Shown here one piece after another: positions 4,526 to 47,138 of a DNA stretch of 64,000 bases (its first letter is position 1; every line of letters begins with the position of its first letter). The position numbers and the translations under genes are program-made. This stretch comes from an uncultured Deferribacteres bacterium. Its GTDB lineage: Bacteria > Zhuqueibacterota > Zhuqueibacteria > Zhuqueibacterales > Geothermadaptataceae. Where the stretch lies: positions 66,946 through 130,945 of the forward strand of contig CAXHAT010000001.1 in assembly GCA_964014485.1 (NCBI GenBank), written 5' to 3'. The notes beneath the pieces were generated by a model that had not been told where the DNA came from, made no database searches, and saw only the letters and a list, made by a program, of their open reading frames with translations.

Positions 4526-6466
4526 ATGAAAAGAACGTTTCTGACCTTTGCCGCGCTTTTTGTCGCCGTCCCGCTCTTGGCCCAAAAGCCCATCATTTAC
4601 AAAATTTCTTTTGAAAACGCCGCCCACCACGAAGCCGAAATTTCGGTTCAATTCAGCGACGTCCCGGAAGGTAAGCTTGAGCTGCGCATGAGCCGCTCCT
4701 CGCCCGGGCGCTACGCACTCCACGAATTCGCAAAAAACGTCTACAACGTCCGCGCGGTTGACAGCAAGGGAAAGCCGTTGATCGTCTCACGACCGAATCC
4801 TTACCAATGGGACGTTTCCGGGCACAGCGGAACCGTGAAAGTGAGCTACACTTTGTATGCCGACCACGCCGACGGCACCTACGCCGCCGTCGATGCATCG
4901 CACGCTCATTTGAACATGCCTGCGACTTTTATGTGGGCGCGCGGCATGGACGAACGCAAAATCAGAATTGAGTTTTCACCTCCGCGCGACAGTAACTGGA
5001 AAGTGGCGACCCAGCTTGCGCCAACGAATGATCCTTTCATGTTTACCGCGCCGAATTTCCAATATTTTATGGATTCTCCGACTGAGCTAAGCAATTTTAT
5101 GCTGCGCGAATGGCCGGTCGATTCGCCGCACGGCGAGCAGACAATTCGGATCGCGCTTCATCACGAAGGAACGGAAGCGGAGGCCGATGTTTACGCTGAA
5201 ATGGGCAAGCGCGTTGTCGACGAGCAAATCGCCATCTTTGGCGAACTGCCCAAGCTGGATTATGGAACGTACACCTTTATCGCCGATTATTTGCCGTGGG
5301 TTTCCGGCGACGGCATGGAACATCGCAACTCAACGATTTTGATTGGAACGAATCCGCTGAAAACGCGCGCTGTCGGGAATTTGGGGACGCTGTCGCACGA
5401 GTTTGTGCATACCTGGAACGTCGAACGCATCCGCCCGAAATCTCTGGAGCCTTTCAATTTTGAAGCCGCAAACATGTCCGGCGAACTGTGGTTTGCCGAA
5501 GGTTTCACCAGCTACTACACGCCGTTGACCATCCATCGCGCCGGGCTAACGAGCCTGGATCGTTTGGCGCGCAGCTATTCCGGGACGCTCAACTATGTTT
5601 TGAATTCACCTGGCCGAAACTTCTTTTCGGCTGTAGAAATGAGCATGCAAGCCCCGTTTGTCGACGCGGCTCGCGCGGTTGACGAGCACAATCGAAACAA
5701 CACTTTTATCTCTTATTATTCGTTTGGCGCTGCGATAGGCCTCGGGCTTGACTTGGCGCTGCGGTCGAAATTTGAAGGCTTGTCATTGGATAATTTAATG
5801 CAAGCCATGTGGCAAAATTTCGGCAGATCGGAAACGCCCTACACGAACGAAAATATTCGAGAAACACTGGCGGAAATTACCGGCGATCAAGCATTCGCAA
5901 CGATGTTTTTTGACAAATATATTTTTGGAAATGAAGTCCTGAATTATAAGAGTTTGCTCGCAAACGCAGGCTTGACCCTGAAAAAGAGAAATCCCGGTAA
6001 AGCGTGGGCGGGTGCGGCTTTTCTGCGGTATCAGGACGGAAAAGCCTTGGTTAGCGGCGCGACGCGAATCGGTTCGCCTTTTTATAACGCCGGGGTAGAT
6101 CGCGATGACAAAATCATCGAAATTGACGGCATGGAAATGTCTTCGCAGGATGAATTTAAGAAACTGCTTGATTCGCACGAACCGGGCGACGTCGTTGAAA
6201 TTTCGTACTGGCAGCGCGGCCAGGAAAAAACGGAAAAGCTGACTTTTGCTGAAGACCCGTCGCTTCAAGTCGTTCCTTTCGAGCACCAGGAGCAAGAGAT
6301 CACCCAAGAGATCGCAGCCTTCCGAAAAAGCTGGCTTGGCTCGAAAGCTAAAAATCAGCGCCCCGAACTGGTCAAGCATTGCCATCGATGTAAGCGAGAG
6401 TTTGCCTTTGCTTTCGAATATTGCCGATTCGACGGCGAGACGTTGATGATTACGTCGGACAAATAA
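4526..6466 (+). CDS. M61-family glycyl aminopeptidase with PDZ domain and C-terminal zinc-ribbon-like tail
   Basis: Signal peptide MKRTFLTFAAL, SPGRY, GMEHRNST, HEFVH...WFAEGFTSYY, PDZ-like GSPFYNAGVDRDDKIIEIDG. Confidence 0.9.
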   Translation: MKRTFLTFAALFVAVPLLAQKPIIYKISFENAAHHEAEISVQFSDVPEGKLELRMSRSSPGRYALHEFAKNVYNVRAVDSKGKPLIVSRPNPYQWDVSGHSGTVKVSYTLYADHADGTYAAVDASHAHLNMPATFMWARGMDERKIRIEFSPPRDSNWKVATQLAPTNDPFMFTAPNFQYFMDSPTELSNFMLREWPVDSPHGEQTIRIALHHEGTEAEADVYAEMGKRVVDEQIAIFGELPKLDYGTYTFIADYLPWVSGDGMEHRNSTILIGTNPLKTRAVGNLGTLSHEFVHTWNVERIRPKSLEPFNFEAANMSGELWFAEGFTSYYTPLTIHRAGLTSLDRLARSYSGTLNYVLNSPGRNFFSAVEMSMQAPFVDAARAVDEHNRNNTFISYYSFGAAIGLGLDLALRSKFEGLSLDNLMQAMWQNFGRSETPYTNENIRETLAEITGDQAFATMFFDKYIFGNEVLNYKSLLANAGLTLKKRNPGKAWAGAAFLRYQDGKALVSGATRIGSPFYNAGVDRDDKIIEIDGMEMSSQDEFKKLLDSHEPGDVVEISYWQRGQEKTEKLTFAEDPSLQVVPFEHQEQEITQEIAAFRKSWLGSKAKNQRPELVKHCHRCKREFAFAFEYCRFDGETLMITSDK

Positions 6467-6503
6467 ATTTGGTCTTCTGCGAAAAACCAACTGACATGTT
6501 GAT

Positions 6504-7223
6504 ATGAATCTACGTCTGAAAGCTGCGATTTTTTCTTTAGCTGCGTTTCTAAGCGCCGAAACCTTATGGGCGGGAGACGCTTCGAAACTCAAGGTTATCG
6601 GCTTCTCGCAAGACGGAAAATACCTGGCGTTTGAAGTGTACGGCGTTCAAGACGGCAGCGGTATGCCCTATTGCGAGGTTTACCTGGTCGATGTTGAAAA
6701 GAATGATTTTGTCGGTCGTCCGGTCAAGCTATCCGGGCACGAGGGAGACGGCGACGATTTGGCTTTGAACACTGTCCGCGAGCAAGTTCGCGGACAAGTC
6801 GAGAGCCGCATCGCTGAATTGGAAATCAGCGGCGAATTTCAAGGCGAGTTGGTCGTTCACAACCCAATCGCCGATCTTTCAGACGACGGCTGTCACGTAC
6901 GTTTTTCCAGCCATCCGGTAACGTACAATGAACCCGAAGCGCACGTTTATGAAGTTTTTTTAGAGCAAGAAGCAACTGGGGACACTTGCTACTATTTTCC
7001 GGCGCAAATTTTTACCCTGAATTTGAAGCATCAGGGCCGCATCAAAACGCTGCAAAAGGACGCTCGTCTGCCAAAATCGCGCGGGTGCGTTTATAAATAT
7101 CGCATTGAGCGCGTCATCTGTTTTCAGAACAAAATCGTCGTTTTTCTCAACTCTTACCGCCCCGGCTTCGAAGGCCCGGAAGTGCGTCACCTGGTTGTGA
7201 CCGGCACGCTCGATTTTCCATAA
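6504..7223 (+). CDS. Secreted DUF2259-like protein
   Basis: Signal peptide followed by GFSQDGKYLAFEVYGVQDGSGMPY; C-terminal PGFEGP. Confidence 0.75.
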   Translation: MNLRLKAAIFSLAAFLSAETLWAGDASKLKVIGFSQDGKYLAFEVYGVQDGSGMPYCEVYLVDVEKNDFVGRPVKLSGHEGDGDDLALNTVREQVRGQVESRIAELEISGEFQGELVVHNPIADLSDDGCHVRFSSHPVTYNEPEAHVYEVFLEQEATGDTCYYFPAQIFTLNLKHQGRIKTLQKDARLPKSRGCVYKYRIERVICFQNKIVVFLNSYRPGFEGPEVRHLVVTGTLDFP

Positions 7224-27474: not shown

Positions 27475-28410
27475 ATGATGAAAAAGTCATTCATAAAAAT
27501 TTGGCTTGGCGAAAAGAATATCCAAATAAATCGCCGCATTCTGACTTCTTTTTCATGTCGACCACGTGCTCTTTTTTATTCGAGTCGTGTTTTTTTTATG
27601 TATGCGATTTTGTGTTTGTGCCTGGCAAATTCAAAGGAAGTCTCGAGTCAAACAACTCCGGAAAACATCGTCGCAAGAATTTACCAAACAATTCGAGCAG
27701 GCGATTTTGTTTCAGCAAAAGGGATGGCAGATTCCGCCTTGGCTGATTTTCAAAAACTTGCGCCCGCGCAGCTCGCCGCACTGCATGCAACGCGCGCCCT
27801 GTTGCACGATTTTTCAGGAAATAATCAAGGTGCGGTAAACGAACTGACCCTGGCTGCTCAACTCAATCCTTTTCTCGAACTCGACCCGCTATTTTATTCG
27901 CCGGGACTACGTGCACAGTTTGGGGAATTGAGTAAAAAGTTTCAATCGCAGACAGAAAACGCGAAAGACGATCTTCCGCCTGGTAAGGGAGAGATTCGGT
28001 ATATTTCAGTGCCGGACCCGCGAATCAGTGCGGCTTGGCGCTCGCTTTTTATTCCGGGTTGGGGGCAGTTTCATAAGCAGCAAAAAAAGCGCGGGTACAT
28101 TTTGGGCGGCTTAACGATATTATCCGCCGCCGTAGCGGTCAGCAGTTATTCTTGGGAACAATCGGCGCACGACAAATATCTCGTCGCGGTAGACCCCCTG
28201 GAAATTGAAGCAAAATATGAAGACTATGACCGTTTCTATCGCCTGCGCCGAACGTTTACGGCGACAACAGCACTTCTTTGGAGCATCAATTTTTTGGACG
28301 CCGTTTTTACGCCAAAATCACGCTCAAAATCTATTGCTTTCCACCCTACATCTTCCTCAGCCATTGCATTCGCGGACGGCTTTCGTGCAAGTCTGCAAAT
28401 TCAATTTTAA
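27475..28410 (+). CDS. TPR-like / DUF5683-like membrane-associated protein
   Basis: Helical N-terminal region, AAWRSLFIPGWGQF motif, terminal Phe (LQIQF); true start may be further downstream. Confidence 0.7.
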   Translation: MMKKSFIKIWLGEKNIQINRRILTSFSCRPRALFYSSRVFFMYAILCLCLANSKEVSSQTTPENIVARIYQTIRAGDFVSAKGMADSALADFQKLAPAQLAALHATRALLHDFSGNNQGAVNELTLAAQLNPFLELDPLFYSPGLRAQFGELSKKFQSQTENAKDDLPPGKGEIRYISVPDPRISAAWRSLFIPGWGQFHKQQKKRGYILGGLTILSAAVAVSSYSWEQSAHDKYLVAVDPLEIEAKYEDYDRFYRLRRTFTATTALLWSINFLDAVFTPKSRSKSIAFHPTSSSAIAFADGFRASLQIQF

Positions 28411-42228: not shown

Positions 42229-45015
42229 ATGCCAGACGCAAACGCTCTCATTACCAAAGCGCTCCCCGAGCTGGCGAAGTGGGGATATGAAAAGTACAGA
42301 CAAAGCCGCGCCAGCTTTGAAGACCTGGCTCGCAAAACCCTCGCCGACATTCTCAAAAAACGCAATAAAAACGAACGCATTGTCGACAAGACGATTGAAA
42401 ATCTGCTTGCCGATCCGGCCCTGCAAAATTGGCTCGACGGCGCGCAATTGCCGAGTGATCTAACTTTTGAGAAGCTCGCTGGTCGCGTCAAGATCGATCC
42501 TTTTATTTTGCGCGAATTTTTGCTCGCATTTGAAAAGAAAATCGCCGCTGATCCACAACTGCGAGAAGAAAAAAAACAGAGGCTCGCTGCGGAAAACGCG
42601 CAATTCAACCGCCAAACAAGCGAGATTCTGGAAAAACGGTATGAAGGCCCGGAACAGGAACGCCAAAGCGCCCTTGCGGATTACCGCCAAAAGGTGCGAA
42701 AAGAATTTTCCAACATTACGCTGTTCGGCGACCGTGCGGGCGGTGATGGAGAAGAAAGCGTCATCGAGCGCATGTCCGACATGACGCGCGGATTTGTGCC
42801 GCTGCATTTGAAAGCCTGGCGGGATGAGCAACCGGGCGCCGACGATTCCGCTCTTGAGCTCGAAGACGTATTTTTTAAAAACAGGAAGCGTCTGATTCTG
42901 GTGCGCGGTCTGCCCGGCGGCGGCAAAACCACGCTCTTGCGCTACCTCGCATGGCGTTTTGCCGCCGATAAAAGCGGCGCGCTGCCTATCTATGTTCGCT
43001 TGGAAGCTCTCGAATTGGAAGAAGAATCGCTGACCGAATTCATTCGGATCGAGATCGGCAAGCGATGGACGACGCAGGCTATGGAAGAAGCCCTTCTCCA
43101 CAAAAGCTGCTTTTTGGAAACGCCGATGATCCTTTTGCTCGACGGCGTTGATGAAATCAAGGATTCCGTCAGCCATCAAGGTTTTGCCAAAGCCTTGCGT
43201 AATTTGACGCGTAAAAACAGACGTTGCAACATCATCGTCGCCTCGCGCCCGATTTCACTGAAAAAGCAGGATTATCCTGAATTTGAGACTTACGATCTCG
43301 ATAGACTGACGCAGCCGATGATAGATGATTACGTCCAAAAATGGTTCGGCGTCGAGCAAACGAAAATCGGTCTTTTGCAAAACACTTTGAAAGAAAAGCC
43401 GCGTATCCGCGAACTGGCCGAAATTCCGTTTTTGTTGAGCATGATTTGCTTCACTTTTGACGACGAGGGTGCCGCGCTGATTAACCGCCGCAGTGCGCTC
43501 TACGAAGCCTGCACCAACCGCCTGCTGGCGCGCATGTACAAGGTTGACGACGCGCCGAAACTCACCGCGCCGCAGGAAGAAACCCGCGCCATGCTCAAGG
43601 ATTTGGCCCTGCGCTTTTTCCTCTGGCAGGAATCGGAATTTCCCGCCGACCAGGTTAATGTGCTCGGGAAGCGTTCGCTCTCTGCCGAGGCGCTCAAAGC
43701 TCCCGCTGAAACGCTGGACGATTTGCAGCTCAAAACCGGCTTGATTCAACATGCGCAGGACGGCTTTTCCTTCGTACATCGTTCGCTGTGGGAATATTTT
43801 ACCGCGCTGGCCTTGCACGATAAAAACGACGTGAAATTTGTGACCAAACACGCCGCCAACCCGGACTGGGAAGAAGTGGTGCGTCTGTTTGCCGGACTGC
43901 TCGAAACGCAGGAGGCAGTGCAAGCGCTGGTCGACGGCTTATGGAACATCAACAAGCCCCTCGCTCTGCGCGTTTCCACCGAAGTGGAGACTGAAGCGGC
44001 GGCGCTGCTGAAGCCGTTGATTGAAAAAGACGGCGGCGGCAACCAGGATTTGCTTTTGTTGATCGACTTCATCGACCAGTCGCTGCCGCTGGTTACGAAA
44101 GAAGCCGGGCAAAAACTGGCGGACGAAACCTTGCGTATTCTGTTTTCCGAGTGCGGCGTGACCGACTGCCAGGCGCTCTACCACGCCCACATGCTGCTGG
44201 AAAAACTGAACATGGAACCAACCGAACCCGGCGGGTTGATCTATGACTTGCTCGACCTCGAAAACGCCGCGCAACGCCAACAAGACCTGCTCGCCGATCC
44301 CGAAAACCTGTTCGAATGGATCGACGTTGAAGGCGGCGAGTTTCGAATGGGCGACAAGGACGGTTATTATACGAATGAGGAGCCGGAGCGCCGCGTGCGC
44401 GTGAATGGCTTTCGCATGATGAAGCATCCGGTTACCAATCGCTTGCTGCGCAGCGTCGATTTTCCCTTTTTATCGCAAACGGCGGCGGATTATGCGAGAG
44501 CTCAGAGCGAAAAGCGGCCATTGGTCGCCGTGACCTGGTTCGAGGCGTTCTACTTTTCGCTTTTTATCGGCGCGCGCCTGCCGACCGAGGCCGAATGGGA
44601 ATTCGCCGCGCGCGGCGGCAAAGGCGCGCCGCACCAGACGTACTATTTTGGCGATGATGAGAATGCATTGCCGCAGCACGCCTGGTTTTATGAAAACTCC
44701 GGGCAGCGTGCTCATAAGGTCGATGAAGCGATCGCCGAAACGAAGCCGGGCGATGATCATCCGCTCGGACTGGCGAATATGCTGGGTAACGTGTGGGAAT
44801 GGTGCGGCGATTGGTACGGCGATTATGAAGCTTCGGAAGAGGTTGTCGATAACCCGACCGGTCCTGAATTTGGCAGTCGGCGTGTTTTGCGGGGCGGCGC
44901 TTATGACGCTCTCGCCTCCTACGTGCGTTGCGCTGTTCGCCTCAGCCTCATACCCGCGCTCATCGATTATGGCGTGAGTGTGCGCTGTGTTCAGGACGGT
45001 TCTCTTTCCCTTTGA
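42229..45015 (+). CDS. NACHT NTPase + FGE-sulfatase (SUMF1/CLec) domain protein; DGR target
   Basis: GLPGGGKT, LLLDGVDE, ASRP, FVHRSLWEY; RLPTEAEWEFAARG, NMLGNVWEW, RVLRGG; VR at the 3' end. Confidence 0.92.
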   Translation: MPDANALITKALPELAKWGYEKYRQSRASFEDLARKTLADILKKRNKNERIVDKTIENLLADPALQNWLDGAQLPSDLTFEKLAGRVKIDPFILREFLLAFEKKIAADPQLREEKKQRLAAENAQFNRQTSEILEKRYEGPEQERQSALADYRQKVRKEFSNITLFGDRAGGDGEESVIERMSDMTRGFVPLHLKAWRDEQPGADDSALELEDVFFKNRKRLILVRGLPGGGKTTLLRYLAWRFAADKSGALPIYVRLEALELEEESLTEFIRIEIGKRWTTQAMEEALLHKSCFLETPMILLLDGVDEIKDSVSHQGFAKALRNLTRKNRRCNIIVASRPISLKKQDYPEFETYDLDRLTQPMIDDYVQKWFGVEQTKIGLLQNTLKEKPRIRELAEIPFLLSMICFTFDDEGAALINRRSALYEACTNRLLARMYKVDDAPKLTAPQEETRAMLKDLALRFFLWQESEFPADQVNVLGKRSLSAEALKAPAETLDDLQLKTGLIQHAQDGFSFVHRSLWEYFTALALHDKNDVKFVTKHAANPDWEEVVRLFAGLLETQEAVQALVDGLWNINKPLALRVSTEVETEAAALLKPLIEKDGGGNQDLLLLIDFIDQSLPLVTKEAGQKLADETLRILFSECGVTDCQALYHAHMLLEKLNMEPTEPGGLIYDLLDLENAAQRQQDLLADPENLFEWIDVEGGEFRMGDKDGYYTNEEPERRVRVNGFRMMKHPVTNRLLRSVDFPFLSQTAADYARAQSEKRPLVAVTWFEAFYFSLFIGARLPTEAEWEFAARGGKGAPHQTYYFGDDENALPQHAWFYENSGQRAHKVDEAIAETKPGDDHPLGLANMLGNVWEWCGDWYGDYEASEEVVDNPTGPEFGSRRVLRGGAYDALASYVRCAVRLSLIPALIDYGVSVRCVQDGSLSL
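44878..44998 (+). repeat. DGR variable repeat (VR)
   Basis: Aligns to 45206-45323, with differences almost only at TR adenines. Confidence 0.93.
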
Positions 45016-45041
45016 GCGCTCTTTACTCTTTTTACACTAAT

Positions 45042-45056
45042 ACCCGCCCTGCGGGT
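45042..45056. other. Post-VR hairpin/cruciform (DGR target-recognition element)
   Basis: acccgc-cct-gcgggt, preceded by a pyrimidine-rich tract and followed by cgaaaattttt. Confidence 0.65.
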
Positions 45057-45095
45057 CGAAAATTTTTTTTGAAATATGGCCCATTCCAACTTCAC

Positions 45096-45182
45096 TTCTC
45101 GTTCCAACGCTTTGCGTTGGAACGCAGCGCAGGCGCTTCGCGCCCGGAGATTACATTCCCACGCAAAGCATGGGAACGAGAA
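45096..45182. repeat. REP doublet (CTCGTTCC family) between VR and TR
   Basis: ttctcgttccaacgctttgcgttggaac ... ttcccacgcaaagcatgggaacgagaa. Confidence 0.85.
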
Positions 45183-45205
45183 ATTTAAAAGGCGTGATTC
45201 CGGAG

Positions 45206-45323
45206 CAGCGTGTTTTGCGGGGCGGCGCTTATAACAATAACGCAAACAACGTGCGTTGCGCTGTTCGCAACAACATACCCGCGAACATAAACAATGGCGT
45301 GAGTGTGCGCTGTGTTCAAGACG
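45206..45323 (+). repeat. DGR template repeat (TR)
   Basis: AAC/AAT-rich copy of the VR: tat aac aat aac gca aac aac gtg ... cgc aac aac ata ccc gcg aac ata aac aat ggc. Confidence 0.93.
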
Positions 45324-45483
45324 CCGGATAAAATGGATGCCGGAGTCCGGGCGATCACGGTCTCCCGGAGTGTGCATGCCGCCGTCCAGGAATCAAGCCT
45401 GTCTTGTTCCGTTTTTTCCGGAAGGAGACGAACACAAAAACCGCACAGGCGCGGCTAGTAGGCCCCTCGAACGTCGCGCCTGT
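45324..45483 (+). ncRNA. Structured spacer 3' of the TR (putative DGR RNA 3' domain)
   Basis: ccggg...cccgg stem and terminal acaggcgcg...cgcgcctgt stem (45445-45483), in the position of DGR TR-RT spacers. Confidence 0.55.
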
Positions 45484-45520
45484 TGTATTTACCCGCGCTC
45501 GCTCTCGTTCCAATGCTTCG

Positions 45521-45668
45521 TTCTCGTTCCAATGCTTCGCGTTGGAACGCAGCTTAGGCGCTTCGCGCCAATTTCACGCGCCGGGATGAATCGCCGGGCC
45601 TGGGAGCCGAGAGAGTGGGCGCGAAGCGCCGGGAGACTTCATTCCCACGCGAAGCGCGGGAACGAGAA
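45521..45668. repeat. 148-bp REPIN, left of the RAYT
   Basis: Direct repeat of 46269-46416 with CTCGTTCC/GGAACGAG ends; partial REPs at 45504-45520 and 45680-45693. Confidence 0.88.
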
Positions 45669-45717
45669 GGCGTCGATGGCATGGGAACGAGAATGTTATA
45701 AAGAAAGGAGCCTGTTC

Positions 45718-46257
45718 ATGGGGCGGTCGCGTTATAAAATCTTCGAGCAGGAACGTCCGCATTTTTTCACCAGCACGATTGTTCAATGGCTTCCGCTTTT
45801 CGCGAGTCCTCATGTTGTTGAAATCATTTACGAATCCTGGAAATTCATGCAAAAAGAAGAACGATTCGTCATTTACGGCTACGTGATTATGGAAAACCAT
45901 CTGCACTTCATCGCCTCATCGCCGACGAACTTGAGCAAGGAAGTCGGCGTCTTCCGCTCTTACACGGCGCGGCGGACCATCGATTTGCTGGAAGAGAAAA
46001 AAGCCAAACGCATTCTGCGCCAATTGAACTATTACAAGCTCAAACACAAGAAAAATCGCAAGTATCAATTCTGGCAAGAAGGCGCGCATCCTGAGGCGAT
46101 TCTGAACGACAAAATGATGATACAGAAAATCGAGTACATGCATTACAATCCTGTGAAGCGCGGCTATATCGATGAGCCGGTGCATTGGCGTTATTCCAGC
46201 GCTCGGAATTATGCCGGAGCGGAGGGGTTGATGGATATTACATTGTATGAATTATGA
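45718..46257 (+). mobile_element. REP-associated tyrosine transposase (RAYT, Y1 HUH)
   Basis: HFFTST, YVIMENHLH (HUH), FWQEG, YMHYNPV, WRYSSA; AAGGAG RBS; flanked by REPINs. Confidence 0.92.
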
Positions 46258-46268
46258 ATCATTCCTGT

Positions 46269-46416
46269 TTCTCGTTCCAATGCTTCGCGTTGGAATGCAG
46301 CTTGGGCGCTTCGCGCCAATTTTACGCACCGGGATGAATCACCGGGTCTGGGAGAAGAGAGAGTGGGCGCGAAGCGCCGGGAGACTGTATTCCCACGCAA
46401 AGCGTAGGAACGAGAA
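46269..46416. repeat. 148-bp REPIN, right of the RAYT
   Basis: Direct repeat of 45521-45668. Confidence 0.88.
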
Positions 46417-46446
46417 TAATGGTTCTACTAAAAGTCTGAGTAGAAA

Positions 46447-46797
46447 ATGACGAAAAAAAACGAGTTTGTTGAGTACCTGATCGAGCTGCTACAAGATTTT
46501 GGGTCTGTGACGGCAAGGGCAATGTTTGGCGGTTACGGCCTGTATCATGAAGGCTTGATGTTCGGACTTGTGGCGGATGATACGCTCTATCTGAAGGTTG
46601 ACGACCAGAGCCGTTCGACTTTTGAAGCGGAAGGTCTCGAGCCGTTCATGTACGTAAAAAACGGCAAGGCGATGGCGATGTCCTACCATCAAGCGCCCGC
46701 TGAAGCGTTGGAGAATCCACGAGAAATGCAACATTGGGCGACGCTTGCTTATGAAGCCGCTCTCCGCGCTCCGCGAAAAAAGCCGCGCAAGAAATAA
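46447..46797 (+). CDS. TfoX/Sxy N-terminal domain protein
   Basis: RAMFGGYGLY, DTLYLKVD, MSYHQAP. Confidence 0.88.
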   Translation: MTKKNEFVEYLIELLQDFGSVTARAMFGGYGLYHEGLMFGLVADDTLYLKVDDQSRSTFEAEGLEPFMYVKNGKAMAMSYHQAPAEALENPREMQHWATLAYEAALRAPRKKPRKK

Positions 46798-46895: not shown

Positions 46896-47138
46896 ACTGA
46901 TGTTACCGCGTCTCGTTTGGCGTGCGTGATCAAAGCACGTAGGCAACTATTGATTCTTATTAGCTCCGTTCTTCAGGATACTGTTGGCGTTTTTCCCCAG
47001 GGCTTCGCCCTTCGCTATTACATTCGACCCCTTTGGGGTCAGTCTTTGGAATTCGCCAACAGTATCCTTCAGCCTGGCGCTAATGAGACAAAATTTGCCC
47101 CGAGATTTAGGCTATGCGTTGCCGCGTGTAACATCAGT
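46896..47138. mobile_element. MITE-like element, copy 2 (11-bp TIR ACTGATGTTAC) containing a nested TIR element
   Basis: actgatgttac...gtaacatcagt flanked by T runs; inner gatactgttggcg...cgccaacagtatc flanked by direct cttcag. Confidence 0.72.

Follow-up and report, generated by a model that had tools for sequence, protein, structure and literature searches.

The stretch analysed here, called the window in what follows, is the final 64 kb of contig C1 (130,945 bases) of an uncultured Deferribacteres bacterium. The source assembly, G000, is a short-read metagenome-assembled genome (MAG) of 8.4 Mb in 465 contigs, with an estimated completeness of 97%. Within the window lie parts of a diversity-generating retroelement (DGR), namely a target gene that ends in a variable region (VR), a template region (TR) and a structured spacer RNA. 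Between target and TR, where related elements carry the genes for Avd and for the reverse transcriptase (RT), there are short remnants of both genes on either side of an inverted pair of repetitive extragenic palindromes (REPs), a doublet referred to below as a REPIN. Downstream of the spacer is a gene for a REP-associated tyrosine transposase (RAYT), itself set between two REPINs (Table 1). We argue that the cassette is probably a DGR that has been stripped of its enzymes.

Table 1. Features of the DGR cassette and the adjoining RAYT locus (window coordinates)
Feature	Position	Strand	Description
DGR target gene	42229..45015	+	928 aa, intact open reading frame (ORF); NACHT NTPase and C-terminal FGE-sulfatase (C-type-lectin-like) domain
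VR	44878..44998	+	last ~40 codons of the target
Post-VR GC hairpin	45042..45070	+	ACCCGC CCT GCGGGT and T run, after the target stop; hairpin 45042-45056; within post-VR element 44999-45084
avd start remnant	45076..45086	+	ATGGCCCATTC, codons 1-4; aligns with the avd starts of relatives G006 and G004, then diverges
REPIN_a	45096..45182	.	inverted REP pair; arms 45096-45122 and 45156-45182, 27 nt, 89% complementary
RT 3'-end remnant	45184..45234	+	last 16 codons and stop; aligns with the RT tail/TR junction of G006; overlaps the TR start
TR	45206..45323	+	118 nt, 31 adenines, AAC/AAT-rich
Spacer (Sp) RNA	45324..45491	+	helix joins TR 3' end to CGTCCAG, then three hairpins, the last terminator-like
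REPIN_b	45498..45691	.	5' flank of RAYT; arms 45498-45552 and 45637-45691, one REP duplicated
RAYT	45718..46257	+	179 aa, intact; NF047646 98.7 bits (cut-off 80)
REPIN_c	46269..46416	.	3' flank of RAYT; 91% identical to REPIN_b over 148 nt

The FGE-sulfatase domain of the target protein (PF03781) spans residues 696-921 of 928 (E 1.9e-40), and the NACHT domain is recognized by Pfam as well (8.7e-13). This lectin-like domain, with the VR, stands at the 3' end of the target reading frame, as in other DGRs. Orthologues of the target occur in the related genomes G004, G011, G024 and G027, with 52-59% identity. BLAST aligns positions 44880-44998 with 45208-45323 at 81.5% identity over 119 columns (E 3e-26). 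When the columns are counted over the whole VR and TR, a TR adenine is replaced in the VR at 19 positions (by C at 7, by G at 6 and by T at 6), and there are one C-to-T mismatch and one 3-nt gap. The substitutions are thus adenine-specific in 19 cases out of 20, which is the hallmark of DGR mutagenesis, and the pair agrees with its description in the original prediction. BLAST of the 8.4-Mb genome found neither the TR nor the 177 nt that follow it a second time.

The window TR is 76% identical to that of the sister cassette in G006, and it is shorter by one AAC-type codon than both its own VR and the G006 TR. This deficit is most simply read as the loss of a codon from the TR since homing last took place; slippage of the RT could also have added a codon. 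The hairpin that had been predicted downstream of the VR is present. It belongs to a block 77-81% identical to its counterparts in relatives, and its arms covary in G006 and G004, as befits a conserved cis-element of DGRs.

The deletion scar and the ancestral gene order

Six places in the G000 assembly match RVT_1 and seven match the Avd model. None of them lies on the 131-kb contig C1, so that the cassette has neither the RT nor the avd gene of a DGR, and the window is indeed devoid of such reading frames, as had been claimed.

What remains of the two genes is found around REPIN_a. Alignment of the window to G006 and G004 breaks off about 10 nt before this REPIN and resumes 3 nt after it. The RT remnant shares frame and stop with an ORF of G006 (5957-6517). 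A 52-aa ORF (45076-45234) begins with codons 1-4 of avd, crosses REPIN_a and ends, in frame, with the final 16 codons of the RT gene; it is probably a chimeric scar and not a gene. Because REPIN_a sits between the avd start and the RT tail, about 1.4 kb, from avd codon 5 to near the end of the RT gene, has been deleted.

The order of the missing genes is given by relatives. A DNA search for homologous cassettes in 41 genomes (G000 and 40 relatives) shows that several of these contain the spacer, the TR, the post-VR element and the 3' end of the target. In G004, G006, G025, G026 and contig C80 of G011 the order is target-avd-RT-TR-spacer. The G004 element has an intact orthologous target of 925 aa, an Avd of 111 aa and an RT of 353 aa. 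The G006 cassette carries avd and RT upstream of its TR, and it shows signs of decay: there is an in-frame TAA in the RT gene, and the target is interrupted by a stop in the VR and has lost an internal segment. A tree built from seven target sequences (midpoint root only; G006 and G019 rows partial) places the target of the window as sister to that of G006 (support 100/99), and a second clade (100/99) comprises G004, G027:C818, G019, G011:C94 and G024.

Since the RT lies between avd and TR in this lineage, the REP doublet fills the slot of both genes. The original prediction placed REPs and the RAYT in the positions of avd and RT. As regards the REPs it was correct, inasmuch as a doublet between target and TR occupies exactly the avd-RT site. 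The RAYT, however, does not stand in the RT position. The slot that had been assumed to follow the TR is not where the intact relatives have their RT, and the REPIN-RAYT-REPIN block starts outside the cassette, 6 nt past the terminal hairpin of the DGR RNA, at a point where relatives have unrelated DNA.

The window cassette resembles canonical DGRs (BPP-1, with the order mtd-avd-TR-brt, and those with FGE-sulfatase or C-type lectin (CLec) targets) in its A-specific differences between TR and VR, in the location of the VR at the 3' end of a lectin fold, in the GC hairpin after the VR and in the structured RNA 3' of the TR; its relatives possess both Avd and a DGR-type RT. It differs from them in having no RT or Avd at the locus or on the contig, in the target-avd-RT-TR-spacer order of its intact relatives and in the NACHT NTPase domain of its target.

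The spacer RNA and RT-less cassettes of the lineage

The window spacer (45331-45491) is 83% identical to that of G006 over 164 nt. Nine aligned spacers define 47 base pairs in 7 helices, one of which pairs CAAGACG at the TR 3' end with CGTCCAG in the spacer. Changes on both sides are seen at 25 of the 47 pairs, as against 5-7 when the partner is slid by 1-3 columns, and 94.3% of the cells are paired, as against 38-46% in these slid controls. None of 500 shuffles matches the observed covariation score. Since the structure was built from these same sequences, which are related to one another, the shuffles overstate the covariation, and the slid controls make a fairer yardstick. Comparative evidence of this kind indicates that the spacer is a conserved, covarying DGR RNA, in keeping with the structured element that had been predicted 3' of the TR. 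Folded as a single sequence, TR plus spacer gives an unremarkable z of -1.97. The promoter scan finds no promoter-like site on the + strand in 44800-46500, and no + strand terminator is called in this interval, where the loop of the last spacer hairpin is too long for the scan used.

Nowhere in the window does an Rfam family attain its gathering score. The nearest match of the spacer is a partial one to RT-7 (RF03028), in which 146 model positions are replaced by 37 nt. The RT-1 to RT-19 families are RNA motifs found beside RT genes, and RT-10 lies between the TR and brt of BPP-1, according to Weinberg et al. 2017 (PMC5737381). Like RT-7, the window spacer is a structured RNA, and its first hairpin matches the 5' hairpin of that family. 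Unlike true members, it scores 25.4 bits, far below the gathering score of 116.8, and on this threshold it is excluded from RT-7. An RT-type Rfam family was likewise looked for near the other DGRs of G000, and none was found.

A covariance model built from the spacer RNA, R1, was used to scan 29 genomes, including G000 and the unpublished genome G016. It matches 19 places in 16 of them, with G000 and one place in G016 among these. Eleven places score above 140 bits. In five, those already listed for the complete gene order, avd and RT stand upstream of the TR. Four have a clean target-TR-spacer arrangement (G000, G011:C94, G024:C924 and G027:C818). One, G012:C15 (L072 750-1700), keeps avd residues 1-34 and RT residues 270-351, and in one, G019:C11 (L071 4580-4900), the target is fused directly to the spacer, with no TR. 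Among the eight weaker places, three show another order, target-TR-spacer-avd-RT. An exact-pattern scan for the spacer motif in 185,579 species genomes, too strict to be a census, gives 6 loci; the additional one, L114 (3900-4729), encodes 58 Avd residues (1-58) and has half a TR and no RT. Taken together, these architectures show that enzyme loss by deletion recurs in this lineage. Judged by the target tree, the loss in G000 is independent of that in the G011/G024/G027 group.

Two of the clean cassettes, G011:C94 and G024:C924, have the RT-less layout in common; the sequence in their gaps is homologous, and both carry, at the same place, a REPIN from another family. Between their TRs, 6 of 115 positions differ. 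Between their VRs, the differences number 13 at the 27 shared TR-adenine sites, as against 4 at 85 non-A sites (Fisher 8e-7), and at the non-A positions where the two TRs differ, each VR matches its own TR. Moreover, the G011:C94 VR shows 16 A-site and 2 non-A mismatches in 115 with its own TR, as against 16 non-A mismatches in 115 with the TR of the autonomous DGR G011:C80. The simplest reading is that information would have continued to flow from TR to VR within each cassette after the RT-less state arose. This evidence comes from two to three related genomes, whose RT-less state is taken to predate their split, and the signal is weaker when G027 is compared (p 0.10 and 0.05). Such continued flow would imply an RT acting in trans in G011 and G024, so that the lack of an adjacent RT alone does not mean inactivity. 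Candidate enzymes are present, since the best RTs elsewhere in these genomes reach 61% and 54% identity to the G004 RT in G011, 55% in G024 and 56% in G027 (cut by a contig end); the corresponding values are 57% in G012 and 49% in G019.

The situation in G000 is different. R1 recovers one spacer there, that of the window (176 bits; 150 of 786 first-look candidates scored). Three of the six RT places are of the DGR type, each with its own A-biased TR/VR pairs (sought on the RT-bearing contigs and on C343 and C250; pairs on other contigs may be missed). The DGRs of C135 (L002) and C74 (L004) have the order target-avd-TR-RT-target. That of C94 (24800-28588; L005, L048) has two targets followed by RT and TR (28232-28356); no avd was found nearby, the contig ending 230 nt after the TR. 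With its filters off, R1 gives a weak match (14.9 bits, E 0.006) directly 3' of the C94 TR. These three RTs are the best matches to the G004 RT in G000, with identities of only 39% (C135), 37% (C74) and 39% (C94), so that the search of the genome for DGR-clade enzymes, suggested with the original prediction, turns up other DGR RTs and none of the cognate type. The proposal of service in trans thus fares well for the older RT-less cassettes of G011, G024 and G027, whose VRs track their own TRs and whose genomes hold cognate RTs elsewhere, and poorly for the window cassette, for which no cognate RT or Avd was found in G000.

Some further observations concern the other RT loci of G000. The DGR RTs of C74 and C135 are about 500 aa long with a C-terminal stretch, which in C74 matches the N-terminal part of MutS (TIGR01070, E 2e-5). 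On C60 (L001) the gene for a 296-aa RT is followed directly by cas1- and cas2-like ORFs and is probably CRISPR-associated. A second RT-less cassette is found on the - strand of C343 (1-1700; L014), with a target (VR 1272-1444), avd (894-1211) and TR (687-859). The 3' side of this TR bears a hairpin and then a GIY-YIG-like ORF between two copies of a REP of a second family, beyond which the contig ends. A string of about 46 nt that includes CTGTCTCTTATACACATCT recurs at the ends of dozens of G000 contigs (for instance C343:1-46) and looks like leftover library adapter.

The neighbouring REPtron

The REPIN-RAYT-REPIN succession announced by the original prediction is present directly after the spacer. 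The RAYT passes the cut-off of the NCBIfam RAYT equivalog, and its match to Pfam Y1_Tnp is weak (20.1 bits, below the cut-off of 23). A RAYT gene flanked by its own REP or REPIN sequences, of the E. coli TnpA_REP type, is known as a REPtron. The window locus conforms to this type, having a RAYT-family HUH/Y1 transposase between inverted REP pairs of one genome-dispersed family; what sets it apart is the extra REPIN inside the DGR, at the 1.4-kb deletion scar. Indeed, REPIN_a belongs to the same family as the REPINs that flank the RAYT (88-92% identity over 49 nt). This family is found on 20-22 of the 465 contigs, whereas three copies lie within 1.3 kb at the locus, which amounts to strong local clustering around the RAYT. 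G000 has seven RAYT-like places, five of them above the cut-off, and the RAYT orthologues of relatives (54-73% identity) are on other contigs.

With the window RAYT as query, matches are obtained in 34 of 125 genomes of the class. Among 30 loci inspected, one of which is from the unpublished G016, DGR parts occur within 1.5 kb of the RAYT at two, the window and G036:C61; conversely, a RAYT stands within 1.5 kb of one of the 19 spacer places, that of the window. In G036:C61 (203000-205000; L076 7000-8950) a target-avd-TR cassette is followed by a second avd copy, which is cut at about codon 55 and ends exactly at the 5' REPIN of a RAYT 54% identical to that of the window. No RT is found within 16 kb of this cassette. 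The association of DGR and RAYT thus recurs weakly in the kind of survey that had been called for. Independent recurrence at 1 of 29 loci compares with a chance expectation of about 0.15 (a rough background in which DGRs make up a fraction of a percent of the genome), and a single such match among 29 loci is unremarkable. Open-access texts yielded no paper that joins DGRs with REP-associated tyrosine transposases. A candidate in G077, where an FGE-domain gene lies beside a broken RAYT, was rejected as a DGR, there being no TR, avd or RT within 12 kb. In G011 a RAYT-like gene is located 17 kb from the RT-less cassette. Farther downstream in the window (46950-47090), a long inverted repeat (CTTCAGGATACTGTTGGCG ... 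CGCCAACAGTATCCTTCAG) without Rfam match follows a TfoX_N gene.

Origin and present state of the cassette

The events at the locus may be pictured as follows. An ancestral DGR of the order target-avd-RT-TR-spacer has lost avd and RT through the deletion of about 1.4 kb. Four parts survive: the NACHT/FGE-sulfatase target, intact and ending in its VR; the hairpin that follows the VR; the TR; and the structured spacer RNA, whose role in complete elements would be to hold the TR in place for reverse transcription. A REPIN of the downstream RAYT's family now occupies the junction, most likely seeded by the neighbouring REPtron. The deletion could plausibly have arisen by recombination or cleavage at REPs, and we infer that REP/RAYT activity brought it about. 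The RAYT itself is a neighbour and not a part of the DGR.

On balance we consider it probable that the cassette is an enzyme-stripped DGR and a recent fossil, its VR most likely frozen at the last variant in this genome. The VR is read as frozen because no cognate RT or Avd was found in G000, and both the codon deficit of the TR and the absence of any RT above 39% identity favour this. Of the explanations put forward in the original prediction, the one with both genes deleted and the variant frozen therefore fits this genome better. Several points weigh on the other side. The TR with its 31 adenines, the spacer with all its helices, the post-VR element and the target ORF are without decay, so that either the loss of function is recent or the cassette is still in use. 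A cognate RT may be unassembled or unbinned, in view of the 465 contigs and the estimated completeness. There are three other DGR RTs in G000, one of them, on C94, followed by a TR and the weak spacer relative, and same-family RT-less cassettes show VR turnover after the G011/G024 split. Complete DGRs of G000, too, have one or two non-A mismatches between VR and TR. As to the cause of the deletion, REPIN_a may have landed later in a short gap, and nothing shows that a REPIN was responsible.

A working, non-autonomous DGR is a possible alternative, to which we give distinctly less credence. In that case the TR-spacer RNA, made from the retained upstream region, would be copied by an RT encoded elsewhere, with or without Avd; this RT could be the divergent one of C94 or a cognate enzyme missing from the assembly, and the VR would still be diversified. 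The concentration of VR changes at TR adenines in RT-less cassettes of the same kind, the fit of the G011 VR to its own TR and not to that of the autonomous DGR, and the cognate RTs of G011, G024 and G027 all argue for it, as do the integrity of the window parts and the weak kinship of the C94 spacer. Wu et al. (PMC5758913) report that avd, TR and brt supplied on plasmids work in trans. Against it stand the low identity of every G000 RT to the cognate type, the window spacer being the sole one of the R1 family among the candidates scored in that genome, the 3-nt indel between TR and VR, and the decay of the sister cassette in G006. Moreover, since the loss in the window is independent, what is seen in G011, G024 and G027 is not directly transferable to it.

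Y1 enzymes of the HUH class have single-stranded DNA hairpins as their substrates, and no role on RNA or cDNA is known for them. The idea that RAYT and REPs functionally replace avd and RT, the HUH nuclease cutting or moving the REP-bracketed TR in a DGR-RAYT hybrid, draws on G036:C61, where a truncated avd beside a TR adjoins a RAYT of the same family, with no RT in the vicinity. Nothing in the analysis points to action of the nuclease on the TR RNA, however. The TR-spacer has not been copied or moved, being unique in the genome; no DGR part lies closer than 1.5 kb at 28 of the 30 RAYT loci, 18 of the 19 spacer loci have no RAYT, and the RAYT orthologues of relatives reside on other contigs. 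We regard such a hybrid as very improbable. Scarcely credible, finally, is an assembly artefact at the REP repeats that would have removed avd and RT from the sequence. In favour of it, the MAG was built from short reads, and many of its contigs still end in adapter sequence. However, REPIN_a is flanked by unique avd and RT remnants and not by repeats, and Logan contigs of two runs cross the junctions with zero differences, with the reservation that they may come from the sample of the assembly itself. The positions covered are 44999-45305 (X1 record 4), 45168-45346 (X2 record 10) and 45378-45720 (X2 record 11); these records bridge the passage from post-VR element through REPIN_a to TR and that from spacer through REPIN_b to RAYT. 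Altogether, Logan contigs of three low-depth DNA runs (about 2-8) from one marine-metagenome study are identical to the window wherever they cover it. They break inside the VR, which we attribute to the stretch common to VR and TR. No RNA run that carries this stretch is listed. The misassembly envisaged by the original prediction is thus not supported.

Partial DGRs have precedents. In the DUSEL4 Nanoarchaeota, a target with an adenine-mutated VR and cis elements lacks an RT gene, and Paul et al. 2015 (PMC4372165) read such elements as fossils or as remotely diversified. The window cassette shares with them the RT-less target with VR and cis elements and the same two readings. Unlike those elements, as far as they are described there, it keeps its own TR and spacer RNA, it has a visible scar and an intact sister architecture, and there is a REPIN in the scar. 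Remote DGR targets are also known, as reported by Wu et al. 2018 (PMC5758913) and Vallota-Eastman et al. 2020 (PMC7517822). Here the likeness lies in a VR far from any RT in a genome with several DGRs, and in multidomain cytoplasmic targets with a C-terminal CLec domain. In contrast, the targets described there match the TR of a complete DGR elsewhere, whereas the window VR matches the adjoining TR only. We found no description of RT-less cassettes that keep their own TR and spacer in the open-access literature. Because DGR surveys start from the RT gene, cassettes composed of VR, TR and spacer without an RT go uncounted.

A wider proposal, which we think unlikely, is that the DGRs of this lineage exist in two forms, an autonomous one and a stripped 'satellite' (VR, own TR, spacer RNA) copied in trans by the RT and Avd of another locus. 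The window cassette would then be a still-diversified satellite, and REP/RAYT elements would excise the enzyme genes. For G000 alone, the enzyme-stripped and most likely recently disabled DGR that we favour is a more modest result. The REPIN at its scar nevertheless offers a tangible example of a second mobile system being remodelled by REP elements, and the window cassette and its relatives can be arranged in a series that begins with intact elements, passes through partial deletions and ends with clean RT-less cassettes. Within one genus there is evidence, at the level of sequence, that RT-less cassettes continued to be rewritten from their own TR. The covarying spacer RNA, with its TR-spacer helix, provides a search model (R1) for such cassettes and a testable picture of template recognition. 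If rewriting in trans is true, one RT-Avd pair can serve several templates, and the repertoires of DGR targets would exceed what RT counts indicate.

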